Below are positions 17,535-23,703 of a stretch of 64,000 bases of DNA, one piece after another. Each line of letters opens with the position of its first letter. The stretch's first letter is position 1. The DNA is from Kofleriaceae bacterium (GTDB taxonomy: Bacteria; Myxococcota_A; Polyangia; Haliangiales; Haliangiaceae): positions 64,001 through 128,000 of the forward strand of contig CBDCCZ010000012.1 of NCBI GenBank assembly GCA_965215005.1, in the 5' to 3' direction. Made by a program: the position numbers and the translations under genes. Below the pieces are notes generated by a model. The model saw only the letters and a list, made by a program, of their open reading frames with translations, had not been told where the DNA came from and made no database searches.

Positions 17535-20492
17535 CTAATCGCTGAGCGACGCCGGCGCCTCGCTCGCAGATAATGACTCGGAGGCGCCCGTCAAGGCATC
17601 GGGCTCGAGGTGGACGTCTAGCTCGCGTCCCGATACCGAGCCGTGGCACCCGCCGCAAACAGCATCGAACAAGTCCTGCCGAATGCCAAGGCTGATGACC
17701 TCGCCAGGACCCATCTGGTGCTCTTCCCGCATGGTCGTGATGACCTGGCCGCGCTCGTCTTGCAGCTCGAACACCAGCGGCGTTCGCGCCGGCACCCGCA
17801 CCTTGATGCTGCCGTCCTCCGCCAGCGGCGCCCGCCCTATCAGCGTGCGCTGCTCAAAGATGTCATCGCGGCTGCCGCTCGCTCCGGCGGGGGCCTCGGC
17901 CTCGCGATACGCCGCGAGCTGGGTGGCATCGCGAAACAAAAATGCAGGCCGACCGCGGCGCAGATTGGCGCCGAGCAACGTGAACACCTGCGGTGCGTCA
18001 GGAAAGTGGACGACCGCTTCATCGCTACCGCCGGTCGTGTCTTGATTCACGGTGCCGCCGAAGACCAGCTGGCGGCGGTTGTAGTAGAGCGCGCGCGGCG
18101 GATGTCGAATCGCGAGCACCGCCTCCACCTGCGCCCCCGGACCACCGATCAACATTTGCCGCGCGCCGGTGCGCGGCTCGATGGCGACCACGTCCCACGC
18201 AAGCGACTGCGCCGTCGCCAGATCGCCGCTGTAGTTGGCCCACGAAGCCATGAGCTGCCCCGAAGGCAATGGGTGCGGCGAGCGATAGACGCCGCTCGTC
18301 GTTGCCCCAACGCGGCCGGTGGCAGCGCGGTCGACGATATACATCGACGGCAGGTATCCAGGATCGGTGCGCCCTTCTTCGTGGGGACCGATGCTGCGGT
18401 TGAAGATCGCCAGGGTTCCCGCGCCACCGCGAGCGCCGGCATCTGAGAGGACGACGAGGAAGTTGCCGTCGAGCCCTTCGCGCAGCTCCGTGGCCTGCTG
18501 ATATCCGATCGACGGCAGCGTTGCCATGGGGTCATCGGTGTTGGCGAGCGGGCTCTCACTGCGCTGCCCGAGCAGCGGGTGATAGTCGGTGAGGTCCCAG
18601 TTGATGCGGCGGCCAGCGAGTTGATAAAAGCCTTCGCTGACCTTTTCGGTGGTCATGATGATGCGCCCTTCGCGCAGCATCTGCGGGCTGATTTCGCTGT
18701 TGGTGAGAAACGTGACCTGCTCCCAGCTGCCGCCACGGATGTCCATCCGCCAGAGATCGGTCTGCGGCAAGAACAACGCGCGCGACACGCTGGGACCACT
18801 GGCGCCGCCTTTGGTGGAGGCGAATACGATGCTTTGGCCATCAGGGGCCCACGCGGGATCGACGTTGTGAATGGCAATGCCGTTTTGAGGCGGCTCTGCG
18901 GCGGTGAGACGTCGGCAGCCGCTGCCATCGACGTCGACCACGTAGATGCCAAACGGATCGCTCGCGGCAGTGCGCATGGCGAATGCGATGGTAGTGCCGT
19001 CAAAGCGAACATCGGGGCCGCGAACATCGACCGTCGCGCGATCGCCGGCGCCGGGGCAGCCATCGAGGAGCGAGCGCGACGGACCGACCTCGACGATGCG
19101 GCTGTCCTCGCCGAGGGTCGCATCGGCGAGCAGCAAGTCAGAACCGGGTTGGTAGATGTCGAGCTCGAGCGGCGTTGCCACGTGCGACTCCTGGCGCTCG
19201 ACGTAGATGAGGGGCAGCGTATCGGCCGGCGCCATCGGGCTCACTTCTCCGCGCGCGGCGAGCTCTTCGCGCTCCAGGCGCACCCACTCTTGCAGCACGC
19301 AAAACGCTGGCCCATCGGGATCGAACGGCACCGGACACGCCGCTGGCGTAGCGCCCCCCGCGCCCGGCGTCTCGAGAATCGCGCCGCCGCGATGCGCGAT
19401 GCCGCCGTGACGCGGCAGCACGTTTTTGGCCACCGCCCTGCCCCGCCGCGCATCCGGCACTTCCAGGGCCATGAAGTCGTTCTTGAAGAGCTCGTAGTTC
19501 TTCTCGAGTGCCACCGGCGAAAAGAATCCTTGGCCGCCGGAGCGGAGCTTGAAGTCGTTGGTTGCACTCGGGGAGTGACAGGCCTCGAACGAGCAGCCGC
19601 GCGCGAGCAGGATCGGTTGCACGTTGTCGGCAAAAAACTGCCGGCCGCGGTCGCCCTGGCCAAAGTCGATCGGACCGACACTCTCGGCCCATCCTCGGAT
19701 GGCCAGATAATTGGCTGCTTCGCGGGACTTGAAGTGATCGCCGCCGGTGTGGAAGAAGCCACCACTGGCCACAGACAGCGGCACCTGCAGGAGCTGGGAG
19801 TTGTCCGGCGTCGCGTCGACGAACGCGCGCGCTTTGTAGAAGTTGAACGCCAGCTGCGCATCATCGCTGCCGCAGGTGATGTAGAAGTCCGATTGCGGCG
19901 CGCCGTGACAGGTCGCCGCACTGCAGCCTTCGAGCACCGGCTGCACCTCGGCCACGAAGCGATCGAAGCCGGCATTGGCAAGCTGCGGCGCGGGATCGAA
20001 GTCGTCGGGAACCATGGTGGAGCAGCCGCCGCTTCCCGAGCGCTGCGGCGCCGGCGGAGGCAAGCCGTTCTCGGTGGCGCCGTTTTCCATCCACGTGAGC
20101 AACGTAAGATAGGCCTGCGAGCCGACCTGCAAGTTGGAACCGCCGGCGTGCTGCACCTCGAGCGGCAAGAAGTCATCGCCGTAGGCAATCGAGAGGTTGC
20201 CAGCGCCGCCCACCGCCTTGATGAGCAGGACTGGAATCGAGTACGGGCCAAACGGCTGCAACAGATCGCGTCGCTTTTGCACGTTCTCGAAGCTGGTAAC
20301 GTCGAAGTTGCCGGCCGCGAAGCCGAATGGGTCGTCTTCGTCGACTTGATGGCAGCCGGCGACGTTGCGCGCGCACGACTGCACGAGGATGGGCTCGATG
20401 TCGCGCTCGTAATAGGTGGTGCCCGGCGTGGGCTCATTACACGCCGCGAGCAACGCGACGCCGCATAGGACAGATCCAAATCGCATCGTCAT
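17535..20492 (-). CDS. Multiheme c-type cytochrome lipoprotein with TolB/PD40-like propeller and HzsA-like C-terminal domain
   Basis: Lipobox LAAC; CARNVAGCH, CSAATCH, CSFEACH, CGGCH; DPAWAPDGQSIVFAS repeat; EDGSIKVRVPARTPLVFELQD...PGE. Confidence 0.75.
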   Translation of the reverse strand: MTMRFGSVLCGVALLAACNEPTPGTTYYERDIEPILVQSCARNVAGCHQVDEDDPFGFAAGNFDVTSFENVQKRRDLLQPFGPYSIPVLLIKAVGGAGNLSIAYGDDFLPLEVQHAGGSNLQVGSQAYLTLLTWMENGATENGLPPPAPQRSGSGGCSTMVPDDFDPAPQLANAGFDRFVAEVQPVLEGCSAATCHGAPQSDFYITCGSDDAQLAFNFYKARAFVDATPDNSQLLQVPLSVASGGFFHTGGDHFKSREAANYLAIRGWAESVGPIDFGQGDRGRQFFADNVQPILLARGCSFEACHSPSATNDFKLRSGGQGFFSPVALEKNYELFKNDFMALEVPDARRGRAVAKNVLPRHGGIAHRGGAILETPGAGGATPAACPVPFDPDGPAFCVLQEWVRLEREELAARGEVSPMAPADTLPLIYVERQESHVATPLELDIYQPGSDLLLADATLGEDSRIVEVGPSRSLLDGCPGAGDRATVDVRGPDVRFDGTTIAFAMRTAASDPFGIYVVDVDGSGCRRLTAAEPPQNGIAIHNVDPAWAPDGQSIVFASTKGGASGPSVSRALFLPQTDLWRMDIRGGSWEQVTFLTNSEISPQMLREGRIIMTTEKVSEGFYQLAGRRINWDLTDYHPLLGQRSESPLANTDDPMATLPSIGYQQATELREGLDGNFLVVLSDAGARGGAGTLAIFNRSIGPHEEGRTDPGYLPSMYIVDRAATGRVGATTSGVYRSPHPLPSGQLMASWANYSGDLATAQSLAWDVVAIEPRTGARQMLIGGPGAQVEAVLAIRHPPRALYYNRRQLVFGGTVNQDTTGGSDEAVVHFPDAPQVFTLLGANLRRGRPAFLFRDATQLAAYREAEAPAGASGSRDDIFEQRTLIGRAPLAEDGSIKVRVPARTPLVFELQDERGQVITTMREEHQMGPGEVISLGIRQDLFDAVCGGCHGSVSGRELDVHLEPDALTGASESLSASEAPASLSD

Positions 20493-20528
20493 CTGAGGGT
20501 ATGGCTGATGAGGAAGCGGCGATAGCGG

Positions 20529-21371
20529 TTATCGAAGCAGGCCTAGCGCTACCCGCGCCGTACGCGCCACCAGTGGCGAGGTGTCGGCGCTGGCCGCTTC
20601 TAGAGCACGACGTGAGGCTGCATCGCCGATGCGACCGAGCGCCCACGCCGCATTGCGCCGCACCGCCGGGTCCGAATCCGCCGCCAGCTGGGCCTCGAGC
20701 GCGGTGCGCGCCGCGCCTTCGCGTAAATTGCCAAGTACGGCGATGGCTTTGCGGCGCACACGTAAGTCACCATCGGACACCAGCGGCACCAGCGCCGCGG
20801 CCTCCGTTTGCTCGCGCAAAGCCAACCACGCGCCCGCTGCTTCGAGCCGAACGTCGGCAGCGTCGTCGCCGAGCGCCGCCGCAATCGCAGGACGCGCCGC
20901 GGGATGACCGATGGTGCCCAGGGCGCGCACCAGATGCTGCCGCGCCTCGGGCGCAAGACCCTTGCGAGATAGCGCCGCGGCGAGCGGCGCGACGGCTTCG
21001 GGGTGGCGAAACGTGCCGAGAATATCGGCGGCGTTGCGCGCCTTCTGCGCGTCTTGGCCCTGCAGATAGGCCAGCGAGCGCTCGGTGAGCTCGCGCTTCT
21101 GCGCCGGCCGCCGCGCAAACCACCACGCCGCGGCTTCGCGCACCTCGTAGCGCTCGTCATCCAGGAGCGCCATCACCGGCTCGATGCACGCCGCGCACAC
21201 CAGCCGCTCGGCCCGCTCGAGCTCGGCGATGATGGCATCGCTCGAGCCGGTGTGAATGGCGTTGACGATGCGACTGGCGCTGCCGCCGCGGCCGGCAACG
21301 GCCGGCGCGCTCGCGAGCAGCAGCGCGCCGAACGCGGCAAGCGCAATGGAACGATGTGCCATGGTCTTCAT
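20529..21371 (-). CDS. Exported HEAT-repeat (PBS-lyase-like) protein with CxxC
   Basis: Signal peptide (PAVA-G), CAAC, repeats VREAAAWW, VRLEAAGA, VRRKAIAVLG, VRRNAAWALGRIG; start re-called at ATG 21371. Confidence 0.8.
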   Translation of the reverse strand: MKTMAHRSIALAAFGALLLASAPAVAGRGGSASRIVNAIHTGSSDAIIAELERAERLVCAACIEPVMALLDDERYEVREAAAWWFARRPAQKRELTERSLAYLQGQDAQKARNAADILGTFRHPEAVAPLAAALSRKGLAPEARQHLVRALGTIGHPAARPAIAAALGDDAADVRLEAAGAWLALREQTEAAALVPLVSDGDLRVRRKAIAVLGNLREGAARTALEAQLAADSDPAVRRNAAWALGRIGDAASRRALEAASADTSPLVARTARVALGLLR

Positions 21372-21385
21372 AGGAGCCGCCTCGG

Positions 21386-23563
21386 TCACGGGTTGGGGCG
21401 ATTTTCGCGGGAATAGAACTGGCCACCGCCATCGGCCATCAAGATCAGCAAGTGATACTCGTCGGCGGTGAGGTCGGTGAAGCCTTGCATCTGCGCATGT
21501 GTGGCAGCGTCGAAGGCACGCACCGAGGCGTCCTCGGCCGGAAACAGCTGCATCGGGTTGAGCACCTTGAGCAATTCCGAGCCGCGGGCATCGCCGGGAC
21601 GCACGTAGTGCGGGACCTGCCCTTCGATGAGTAGTCCCGCCTCTTCGAGATCCATCATCATCGGCCCGAGCAGCGACAGGTGCGAAGCCGAGTAGCCCGC
21701 GAGCATGACCTCGCCGATGCCGTAGTCGACCTGCTGGCCGCGCAAATCGAAGGTCCAGCTCATGGACGCGCCGCTGGCGGTATCGGTGATGGTCCAGCTC
21801 GGGTTGGCCGGGCCGGCGCTGCCGTCGTGGCACGAGACGCACTTGGCGTCGAAGATGGGCTGCAGCGCAAGATCCCACGGCACGCCGATGACGTCGTCGC
21901 GGTCGTAGCGGAGCGATTGCCGCTCGGCGCGCGAGGCTCGGCTGCGCAAATCGTCGGGGCCAATGGCCACCGCCTCGGTGATGCCGGGTTGAATGACCGT
22001 GGTGCCGCTGCGCGACTCGTGGCAGCCACCGCAGAAGCGCGACTCGCCGGGCGCCCCCGAGATCCACACCGGCTCATTCGTCACCGCCATGCCGAAGCGA
22101 TCGACAGTCTGCAAGTGGACGGGAACGTTGGGGGGAATCAACGCAGCCCAGCTGCCGTCATCGCGTACCTGCGCATAGCCGAGGTGCGCGGCGCCTTCAT
22201 GCTCGGTGAGACCAAAGTCGTTGGGCACGCCCTCCTCGACCGAGAAGCCTTCCAGAATGCGAACCGCGGCAATCGAGCCCGGCGCGGGGTTGGCGATGCT
22301 CGAGGCGTAGACGTTCATCGAGCCGAGGAGGACCGCCTGATCACTGAACTGATTGCTGCCGGAGGGCTCGATGGTCGGCGGCGCCTTGCGCGCGATCAGC
22401 GGCCGAGCAAACACGTCCCAGGTCGCCGGATCGTTGTAGATCGGCCTGCGCCGCGCGTTCTTGGAGTCGTAGAGATAGATGCCGAAGTCAGCCTCGAGGC
22501 CCGCGGCTTCTAGCGTGCCCGACTCCACCGGGCCGTCGGCCCACGACACCAGCAGGTTCGGGTATTCGCGCGCATCGAGCGCGTAGGCATCATAGTAGCG
22601 GCCAATCGTCTGGGACGACGGCTCGCGCCCCAGCGGCACCTGCGGCGTGAGGATGCGATAGGAGGCGGTTGCCTCGCTCATGTTGCGGTCGGCGCGCAGC
22701 ACGCCGTCTTCAGACCACACCTGGCCGAGGCGGATGTCGAGGATCGCCCCGGACTGCAGCGTGCGATCGCGCGAGGAGCCGATGGCGATGACTCTGCCCG
22801 GCGCTACCTCGACCGCCTTGAGATACGAGTTGGTGACCCCGGTGCCCTCTTTGCCGAAGGCCTCGCGGATGGTGGTCATGTCGGGATTGCTGATGACCAG
22901 GTGGCCGGCGTTCATCTCACCCAAGTGGTCCCACTGGGTGAGCAGCACCCGGCCATCACTCATCAGGGTGGGAAAGACTCGATGCGAGAGGTTGCGAGCC
23001 CCGAGCCGCTCGCCACTGCCGTCGCGACCGATGACGCCCATCTGGGTGGTGGTGCCGCGCTCGTATTCGTCGCGGTGCTGCGGCGCGCCGGGCTCGGAGA
23101 CGGCGTTGGTCATGAAGAGGATGCGGTCTCCCGGCAGGAAGATCGGGTAGACGTAGTCGCGATTGGGATCGGTGGGCAACTGCTCGACCGAGTCGTTATC
23201 GAGCGAGTAGACGAACAAGCCATAGGCTTGGTCGCCCGACAGCCGCGCCGAGAAGACGATCTCGCGGGCATCGAAGGAAATGTCGTAGGAGCCGATGTCG
23301 GCCTCAGCCAGCTCTGGGCCTTTGTCATCGCAACAGAGCACGGTGAGCTCGCCGTCGGCGGTGGGCGGGCTCAGCATCACCAGCTGGGCGCCGGGGATGT
23401 AGGAGCTGTACTGAAAGATGTCGCCGACGCCGCTGCGAGGTTGGCGCTTGATGAACACCACCGCCTCCACGCCTGCGAGCGAATCGCTCGACGACGAGCC
23501 GCACCCGGCCCCGAGGCCAACGCCCACTGCAACACCCACGGCGATTAGAATCTGGTTGCGCAT
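21386..23563 (-). CDS. HzsA-like (hydrazine synthase alpha-related) diheme lipoprotein
   Basis: Lipobox GAGC; propeller repeats (DISFDAREIVFS, PTLMSDGRVL); DDGSWAALIPPNVPVHLQTVD...PGESRFCGGCHE; LQPIFDAKCVSCH. Confidence 0.8.
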   Translation of the reverse strand: MRNQILIAVGVAVGVGLGAGCGSSSSDSLAGVEAVVFIKRQPRSGVGDIFQYSSYIPGAQLVMLSPPTADGELTVLCCDDKGPELAEADIGSYDISFDAREIVFSARLSGDQAYGLFVYSLDNDSVEQLPTDPNRDYVYPIFLPGDRILFMTNAVSEPGAPQHRDEYERGTTTQMGVIGRDGSGERLGARNLSHRVFPTLMSDGRVLLTQWDHLGEMNAGHLVISNPDMTTIREAFGKEGTGVTNSYLKAVEVAPGRVIAIGSSRDRTLQSGAILDIRLGQVWSEDGVLRADRNMSEATASYRILTPQVPLGREPSSQTIGRYYDAYALDAREYPNLLVSWADGPVESGTLEAAGLEADFGIYLYDSKNARRRPIYNDPATWDVFARPLIARKAPPTIEPSGSNQFSDQAVLLGSMNVYASSIANPAPGSIAAVRILEGFSVEEGVPNDFGLTEHEGAAHLGYAQVRDDGSWAALIPPNVPVHLQTVDRFGMAVTNEPVWISGAPGESRFCGGCHESRSGTTVIQPGITEAVAIGPDDLRSRASRAERQSLRYDRDDVIGVPWDLALQPIFDAKCVSCHDGSAGPANPSWTITDTASGASMSWTFDLRGQQVDYGIGEVMLAGYSASHLSLLGPMMMDLEEAGLLIEGQVPHYVRPGDARGSELLKVLNPMQLFPAEDASVRAFDAATHAQMQGFTDLTADEYHLLILMADGGGQFYSRENRPNP

Positions 23564-23703
23564 CCCCTGGCCTCCTTCGCTCGACCCTTCGCAAGTTCAG
23601 TGCCACGCTCAAAGCCGCGCGAAGACGCCAGCTGCCGTGCTTCGCGGGGGCCGCAAGCCGCGGCGCTGTTTCGCCATCGGGGGCAACAGGCCACGCGCAC
23701 GCC

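Follow-up and report, generated by a model that had tools for sequence, protein, structure and literature searches.

We analysed a 64,000-nucleotide stretch of a Kofleriaceae bacterium genome (contig CBDCCZ010000012.1 of assembly GCA_965215005.1, positions 64,001 to 128,000; hereafter the window), which carries on its minus strand a trio of genes that we call A, B and C. Gene A (21386..23563) encodes a 725-amino acid predicted lipoprotein resembling HzsA, the alpha subunit of hydrazine synthase (HZS); gene B (20529..21371) encodes a 280-amino acid, probably exported HEAT-repeat protein; and gene C (17535..20492) encodes a second HzsA-like predicted lipoprotein, of 985 amino acids. A first-pass annotation of the window, made from the DNA letters alone, had described three closely spaced, co-oriented genes, and this layout stands, with gaps of 14 bp between A and B and 36 bp between B and C. 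The trio is flanked by mutS 140 bp upstream and, 138 bp downstream, by a 276-amino acid gene of no known family; its GC content is the same as that of the flanks. Its nearest homologues carry Haliangium or Kofleriaceae labels, and the Haliangium ochraceum orthologue of C, Hoch_3713, is 62% identical. Because the gene order and motifs are conserved over dozens of genomes, the trio is not a chance arrangement.

Most of the features that had linked the two large proteins to HZS were borne out. Each has a lipobox-type cysteine: C21 of A (lipobox GAGC, non-canonical at -3) is kept in 81 of 89 aligned rows, and C18 of C (LAAC) in 92 of 92. The DGS...P...P...D...PGE...CxxCH pattern is present in both, with 15 residues between PGE and CxxCH in C versus 3 in A. 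The Pfam HZS_alpha family, PF18582, matches both proteins above its cut-off of 26.6 bits (A, 48.5 bits, E 1.3e-12; C, 42.3 bits, E 1.1e-10), and these are the only two matches in the genome. PD40 propeller repeats had been read in both; Pfam recovers PD40 in C but not in A, whose propeller is seen instead in the predicted model and its TolB fold matches. What the first-pass annotation had missed are three extra invariant CX4-8CH domains in C and a second CxxCH motif in A.

Protein A consists of a six-bladed propeller (residues ~33-395, from the predicted model and TolB fold matches), an HZS-alpha middle domain with a CxxCH at 511-515, and a C-terminal cytochrome c domain with a CxxCH at 575-579 and a conserved H689. 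The first motif, C511-x-x-C514-H515 (22019..22033, minus strand), is of the haem alpha-I type, and the second, C575-x-x-C578-H579 (21827..21841, minus strand), is of the alpha-II type, its haem being likely bis-His with H689. A profile of 89 A relatives matched the HzsA structure 5c2v_A with an E-value of 9.3e-36 across positions 30-717, and the A model (pLDDT 92) aligned to the same chain in Foldseek with E 7.5e-31, a TM-score of 0.66 and an rmsd of 6.5, so that by these models A is predicted to fold like HzsA end to end. HzsA and propeller proteins were the only solved relatives of A that turned up. The pattern had been described as a mark of HZS alpha from anammox Planctomycetes and of many uncharacterised relatives; it is less special than this implied, as the A profile reaches 2,989 protein clusters at E<=1e-10 and non-anammox homologues have been published (PMC12758564).

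Tyr591 of HzsA is a proximal iron ligand of its catalytic haem alpha-I (10.1101/2023.01.22.525020). At this position, four residues beyond the His of the CxxCH, A has S519, and its relatives mostly have T, A or S (35, 23 and 15 of 89 rows, respectively), with no Tyr among the six commonest letters. H689 is present in 83 of the 89 rows and falls within one or two residues of HzsA His772 in the profile alignment; the alpha-II CxxCH is swapped for CX4CH in 4 of the 86 rows with a readable motif. The Cys303 region of HzsA, in which Cys303 forms a Zn site with His587, was left unaligned to A, and no invariant Cys was found in the A propeller among the aligned relatives. Invariant residues of this propeller include D165-E166-Y167, H194 and H213.

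Protein C has a six-bladed propeller (residues ~424-800, from the model and a TolB match with Z 26.4, rmsd 3.1 and 268 aligned residues) and an HZS-alpha middle domain with a CxxCH at 946-950; it ends after this motif, without a C-terminal alpha-II domain. The top Foldseek match of the C model (pLDDT 90) was again 5c2v_A (E 5.3e-21, TM-score 0.38 by query and 0.48 by target), and the match runs through the propeller and middle domain. A wide structural search with C, which barely probed the N-terminal domains, gave propeller matches only. The residue at the Tyr591 position is S954 (S in 73, T in 17, E in 1 and N in 1 of 92 rows), and the invariant propeller residues include K617 and D636-Y637-H638.

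In front of this propeller lies an N-terminal arm of three homologous helical domains (19248..20423, minus strand; residues ~24-415). Their motifs, C40-X6-C47H48, C190-X4-C195H196 and C300-X4-C305H306, are each followed by an invariant His (H115, H248 and H367) in an HxGG-type motif. None of the 92 rows lacks any of these motifs or the His that follows it (92 of 92), the first motif reading CX6CH in 83 rows and CX8CH in 9. Aligned with each other by hhalign, the repeats gave probabilities of 67-96%; aligned with the alpha-II domain of A, they gave 67, 47 and 1%. Pfam returned no cytochrome match in these domains. Atlas matches to the arm at 0.90-0.91 included clusters named cytochrome c, with PSCyt1 on 16% of one cluster. 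CX4CH is among the haem-binding motifs listed in PMC11492766, and from their sequences the CX4-8CH motifs of C very probably bind haem. We infer that the arm holds three predicted bis-His c-type haems which, together with the three CxxCH sites, would therefore bring A and C to six predicted haems. Counting CxxCH motifs would overlook half of them (3 of 6).

Protein B matches HEAT_2 (E 3.6e-28), and its N-terminus reads like a signal peptide. Its invariant residues are E52, E55, C59, C62, R78, W83 and W84, with C59 and C62 in 63 of 63 rows. Because B was never seen truly apart from A, we modelled the two together (A residues 30-723 with B residues 27-280) alongside three controls. The A-B prediction scored 0.90 and the best control 0.05; the score mark is reached by 116 of 157 solved complexes and by 2 of 215 mismatched pairs, and is rough with the alignments used here. 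Prediction runs agreed in at least 80% of contacts, with a partner pLDDT of at least 89. In the predicted interface the concave face of B holds an A loop (125-134), and contacts extend over the A propeller and take in parts of both the middle domain (442-454) and the C-terminal haem domain (592-644); C59 and C62 of B are absent from the listed contacts. The models thus predict that B clamps A, which agrees with the dedicated HEAT partner proposed at first pass.

We then surveyed the class Polyangia in one draw of 201 genomes, which are kin, so that the counts are not independent. A was found in 84 genomes, B in 84 (87 matches less 3 generic C-terminal HEAT matches) and C in 83, in the same genomes: 83 had all three, one had A and B with B at a contig end, and 117 had none. 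The trio is therefore all-or-none in the class. With coordinates read by hand, A and B were adjacent in 79 of 84 genomes, the other five lying at apparent contig breaks, and B and C were adjacent in 73 of 83, with seven at apparent contig breaks and three truly apart. A was present in 31 of the 33 genomes of the window's own family, and in 0 of 17, 0 of 12 and 0 of 8 genomes of other families.

The named loci were found with C as the best 80 of 524 candidate stretches. Among these 80, the order A-B-C was intact in 66, one had B-C at an edge, six were cut upstream and seven had C alone, five of the seven coming from assemblies with a second C locus. The first 18 trio-bearing genomes included 16 with contiguous A-B-C; in the other two, a MutS_V gene lay between B and C (L011) or C lay ~40 kb away. 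The expectation that the three-gene order would be conserved in related genomes was thus confirmed, in 66 of the best 80 loci and in several orders within the class. A wider draw covered 301 genomes of the phylum; with a C profile made from class members and two candidates scored per genome, all 26 full-length C matches (>900 bits) were within the class, and the 34 other genomes with a match gave scores below 295 bits. Near lone second copies of C (L116 and L120) we observed a cytochrome b/4Fe-4S/FlpD fusion (by Pfam, L116) and a tryptophanase-like gene; beta-eliminating lyase genes also lie next to C or a gene of its sister subfamily in L097, L104 and L119.

A sigma54-type promoter site with -24/-12 spacing lies ~42 bases upstream of the A start codon (23591..23605, minus strand). 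It is the only exact YGGCAC-N5-TTGC match in the window, a single match that is weak alone, at least one being found in 40 of 100 shuffles. Across relatives, a relaxed motif with the correct spacing was found upstream of A in 39 of 83 regions and the strict motif in 14 of 83, compared to 1-3 of 83 for four wrong spacings and 3 of 83 for the other strand; a few regions are duplicated, and as kin they are not independent. The relaxed motif was found upstream of B in 0 of 82 regions and upstream of C in 6 of 110. The genome has rpoN, and a scan for sigma70 promoters and terminators gave nothing above shuffles. A promoter-like site in front of A, with no counterpart in front of B, fits a single transcript that would start at A.

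A and C are ~23% alike over their best 191 residues. To place them, we built an IQ-TREE phylogeny from 61 propeller-plus-middle-domain sequences, including 29 of the more distant representatives and leaving out HzsA itself (short search, SH-aLRT support only, midpoint root). C grouped (SH-aLRT 100) with a sister subfamily that occurs in other classes of the phylum; A fell among other HzsA-like proteins. Because of this split, we rejected the idea that a single ancestor was duplicated to leave A and C as complementary halves, or that the pair is a tandem duplication; by this tree, they stem from two old subfamilies.

The sister proteins of C have two CX4CH domains and a C-terminal haem. Among selected open reading frames (ORFs) of nine sister loci, one of them unreadable by the gene caller, DUF3570 was found in seven, a propeller-dihaem HzsBC-like gene in eight, thioredoxin-like genes in five and ApbE in three. 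The sister operon, conserved in other classes of the phylum (L101-L107 and L109; for example L106:6209-15782), encodes a thioredoxin-like protein, an HzsA-like protein that has two other haem motifs besides its two CX4CH domains, a small CX4CH lipoprotein, DUF3570, a lipoprotein, the propeller-dihaem HzsBC-like protein and ApbE, and so ties HZS-like alpha and beta-gamma pairs to flavinylation clusters. DUF3570, ApbE, thioredoxin-like and HzsBC-like genes were not found next to the Polyangia trio, and the DUF3570-like and ApbE-like genes of the window's genome are on other contigs.

Our preferred reading, held at even odds, is that the trio forms one lipid-anchored periplasmic haem-c oxidoreductase. 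In such an enzyme, B would clamp A across its three folded domains; the three bis-His haems of the C arm would relay electrons to the two alpha-I-type haems of A and C, which would be open catalytic sites; and the C propeller and haem arm would stand in for the beta propeller and gamma haems of HZS-like pairs. That C binds A-B and substitutes in this way for the beta propeller and gamma haems is the step we somewhat favour. The alpha-I haems may be His-ligated and catalytic, with the invariant propeller residues near them, a proposal that could go either way. The weakest step is the reaction, for which we tentatively suggest the reduction or detoxification of a small envelope oxidant (such as an N-oxide or a peroxide) instead of N-N formation. 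The redox operons in which the sister subfamily of C sits support an oxidoreductase, and so does a ccmF-like gene in the genome; this gene is in four pieces in different frames (contig C49:150626-152435 of genome G000), through errors in the assembly or through gene decay, and contig C59 carries another PF01578 gene. Elsewhere in the same genome, ORFs with 28 and 13 CxxCH motifs (C49:32579-35074 and C18:135413-136762) encode large multihaem cytochromes. The lipid-anchored heteromeric multihaem enzyme proposed by the first-pass annotation is thus partly supported, by the HzsA-like fold and the predicted A-B pair; the joining of C to A-B and the chemistry are proposals.

Several observations weigh against a single oxidoreductase. 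C lies apart from A-B in 3 of 83 genomes, has the MutS_V-domain gene between it and B in L011, and occurs as extra lone copies in several genomes; a separable C fits an independent protein as well as it fits a subunit. Because C has three further conserved Cys pairs that resemble disulfides, the CXnC pairs of its arm could be disulfides too, and weak profile similarity to a known haem domain extends to only two of the three arm domains. A simple relay inside A is doubtful because haem alpha-II of HzsA is too far from the other haems for efficient electron transfer (10.1101/2023.01.22.525020). The conserved neighbours of the trio include no quinol dehydrogenase, porin or other source of electrons, and its neighbours give no clue to a substrate. 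The sigma54-type motif was not found upstream of A in 44 of the 83 regions.

It is rather unlikely, and yet plausible, that A and B form a self-contained two-haem unit, with C as a four-haem protein that acts in the same pathway and is co-transcribed with them without being bound. A and B are never truly apart, C is the only gene of the three found duplicated, A and C belong to deeply split subfamilies, and some C upstream regions have a sigma54-type motif of their own, all of which such a division would explain; against it, C never occurred without A and B in the 201 genomes, A-B lacked C at one contig end only, and the trio order is kept across several orders of the class. We think it unlikely that the trio is a non-catalytic scaffold for electron transfer or redox sensing, with six-coordinate haems and with propellers that bind partners as TolB does. 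Four of the six predicted haems look bis-His, the propellers are TolB-like, and single-copy A and B beside housekeeping genes (mutS, PPDK) would fit a general envelope role. However, alpha-I is the catalytic site in the one solved relative (10.1101/2023.01.22.525020), no invariant distal His or Met follows the alpha-I site in the sequence, and the invariant acidic and His residues of both propellers fit an active site.

The invariant CxxC of B and its weak matches to the HEAT families of CpcE, CpeY and NblB raise the idea of a maturation role for B, as a HEAT chaperone or a thiol-redox protein assisting the folding of A or the attachment of haem, loosely like the CpcE/F bilin lyases. We consider this very unlikely: the matches reach 24-43 bits against cut-offs of 300-600, B tracks A with its canonical motifs and not C with its odd ones, the sister operons with CX4CH motifs showed no HEAT gene, and the predicted A-B interface is large and covers three folded domains of A, with C59 and C62 absent from its listed contacts. 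The true homology of A to HzsA over its full length, with a likely His772 equivalent, would fit a trio that forms N-N bonds (in hydrazine or a related metabolite) or makes an oxidant against prey, both suggested at first pass. This is highly improbable. N-N formation loses support because the Tyr591 equivalent and the beta and gamma genes are missing, the latter from the adjacent genes; close orthologues of the one propeller-dihaem protein of the genome occur in 16 of 201 genomes, and just 2 of the 16 carry the trio; the conserved neighbours include no genes for biosynthesis or secretion, and nothing supports oxidative attack on prey. Hagglund et al. (2025) reject hydrazine synthesis for homologues without the key residues (PMC12758564). 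The earlier expectation of a non-anammox function is supported.

Taken at its most specific, the single-oxidoreductase proposal describes a six-haem alpha/alpha-prime heterodimer with a HEAT clamp and a three-haem CX4-8CH arm in place of beta and gamma, carrying out uncharacterised nitrogen-oxide chemistry in aerobic myxobacteria and available in a culturable model; we offer this full version as a possibility on the doubtful side. If true, it would represent a second solution to building a machine on the HZS-alpha scaffold and a culturable model for what HzsA did before anammox. Among the top structural matches of HzsA, Hagglund et al. found no protein of different confirmed function (PMC12758564), which leaves hydrazine synthesis without a known evolutionary starting point. 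The trio is a compact, mostly single-copy and class-wide example with a cultured carrier, Haliangium ochraceum (Hoch_3713 being its C); being compact, with a cultured carrier and no beta/gamma partner, it should be purifiable and assayable.

The rest of the window and the neighbourhoods of other loci yielded further candidates and observations. The 276-amino acid protein downstream of C (17396-16566) has a signal-peptide-like start and no family match, and its gene adjoins C in most Haliangiales loci in variable orientation. We rejected it as a fourth member, because several loci have the match on the opposite strand and the more distant loci showed no such gene beside the trio. A YVTN propeller upstream (31714-30380) was rejected as HzsB: it is generic, with a single repeat, scores 27 bits vs 560 and lies ~7 kb upstream. 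As the sole match among the neighbours scanned, it leaves intact the earlier statement that no hzsB- or hzsC-like gene is adjacent. This propeller, a 444-amino acid lipoprotein, belongs to a block upstream of mutS (31714-26358) that also encodes a Cys-rich lipoprotein (1056 amino acids, 33 Cys, no Pfam match) and a SPOR-domain protein, and that is also found in several relatives. Farther downstream are a gene for a cNMP-binding domain fused to a thioredoxin-reductase-like FAD domain (16470-14929), whose thioredoxin-reductase match ends at profile position 253 of 300 and whose ORF a frameshift may cut, and genes for an outer-membrane barrel, a Ser/Thr kinase and an MXAN_5187 C-terminal-domain protein (12919-8699); genes like this last set follow the trio in 24-44 of the first 100 loci, where the kinase cluster may merge paralogues. 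Positions 2001-8000 have a GC content of 54-58%, against ~66% elsewhere in the window, and are possibly an acquired segment. In L013, L015, L018, L019 and L020, the region upstream of A holds a divergent hisIE and then a receiver and coiled-coil protein of ~750 amino acids, which may resemble myxobacterial FrzS.

Among known systems, HzsA (kuste2861 of 'Ca. Kuenenia stuttgartiensis'; PDB 5C2V chain A) is the closest, being the top sequence match for A and for both profiles and the top Foldseek match for both models. It shares its propeller and middle CxxCH domain with A and C, and its C-terminal bis-His-type cytochrome domain with A only; C swaps that domain for three N-terminal CXnCH domains. 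The trio differs further from HzsA in its identity of 16-17%, its lipoboxes, its HEAT partner, the lack of a Tyr591 equivalent in A or C and its host, a member of Haliangiaceae/Kofleriaceae to judge by how the nearest homologues are named. Against the NCBIfam equivalog NF052339, A scores 49 bits and C 30.4 bits with a cut-off of 800. Genome-wide, in an assembly that is 92.8% complete, there was no beta or gamma match, the best scores being 34 of 1250 bits for beta-gamma and 24 of 625 for gamma, and PF13447 (the HAO family) matched neither this genome nor any control genome. Because there is no Tyr591 equivalent, no beta or gamma gene, and only 49 and 30 bits vs 800, the trio is, judged by its sequences, not a hydrazine synthase.

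A beta-gamma partner in trans was considered in the orphan 919-amino acid lipoprotein on contig C39 (G000:C39:59065-61878; L121:66-2825, minus strand), which has a YVTN propeller and two CxxCH motifs and is weakly HzsBC/MauG-like, and was rejected on the orthologue counts given above, its orthologues being mostly in genomes without the trio. Weaker propeller-dihaem relatives occur in many trio-positive genomes, and another such partner in trans is possible. For the sister operons of C the comparison is with the DUF3570/ApbE/thioredoxin flavinylation clusters (Meheust et al. 2021, PMC8238504), in which ApbE flavinylates DUF3570, a protein linked to electron transfer outside the cytosol; the sister operons share these genes, none of which adjoins the trio. 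TolB of the Tol-Pal system has a six-bladed propeller with the PD40 repeat in common with the trio, but the match to TIGR02800 is 43.5 bits vs 343, the trio has haem domains, and no tol-pal genes are among the scanned neighbours. CpcE/F-type HEAT bilin lyases are cytoplasmic and belong to a phycobiliprotein context; B falls below their NCBIfam equivalog cut-offs and has a signal-peptide-like start.

Hagglund et al. describe non-anammox HzsA homologues without the key residues, and report that the Zn-site residue is not universal even in anammox bacteria (PMC12758564). Their clades I-IV, like the trio, have the HzsA fold without the catalytic Tyr, and are defined by a co-located beta-gamma gene; the trio has none, and has instead a HEAT gene and two alpha-like genes. 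No beta-gamma fusion gene was found among the window neighbours or the conserved neighbour clusters of the trio. A keeps the likely distal His of alpha-II, which their clade I lacks. The accessible main text of that paper names no Myxococcota, Polyangia or HEAT protein, and its BLAST table includes at least 8 Polyangia alpha hits of 672-977 amino acids, without comment. A literature search (H. ochraceum tags; hydrazine synthase with Myxococcota or Haliangi), with most subscription journals outside its coverage, returned no paper on this arrangement and no published functional characterisation of orthologues, in line with the earlier description of the genes as uncharacterised. The clade III gene layout occurs in a genome of the same phylum, at L009:5678-14799, with genes for an FG-GAP/ASPIC protein, an HzsA-like protein (149 bits to NF052339), an HzsBC-like protein (164 bits) and a periplasmic binding protein. 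The HzsA family is large and already known outside anammox bacteria, and the trio is a conserved variant of it.

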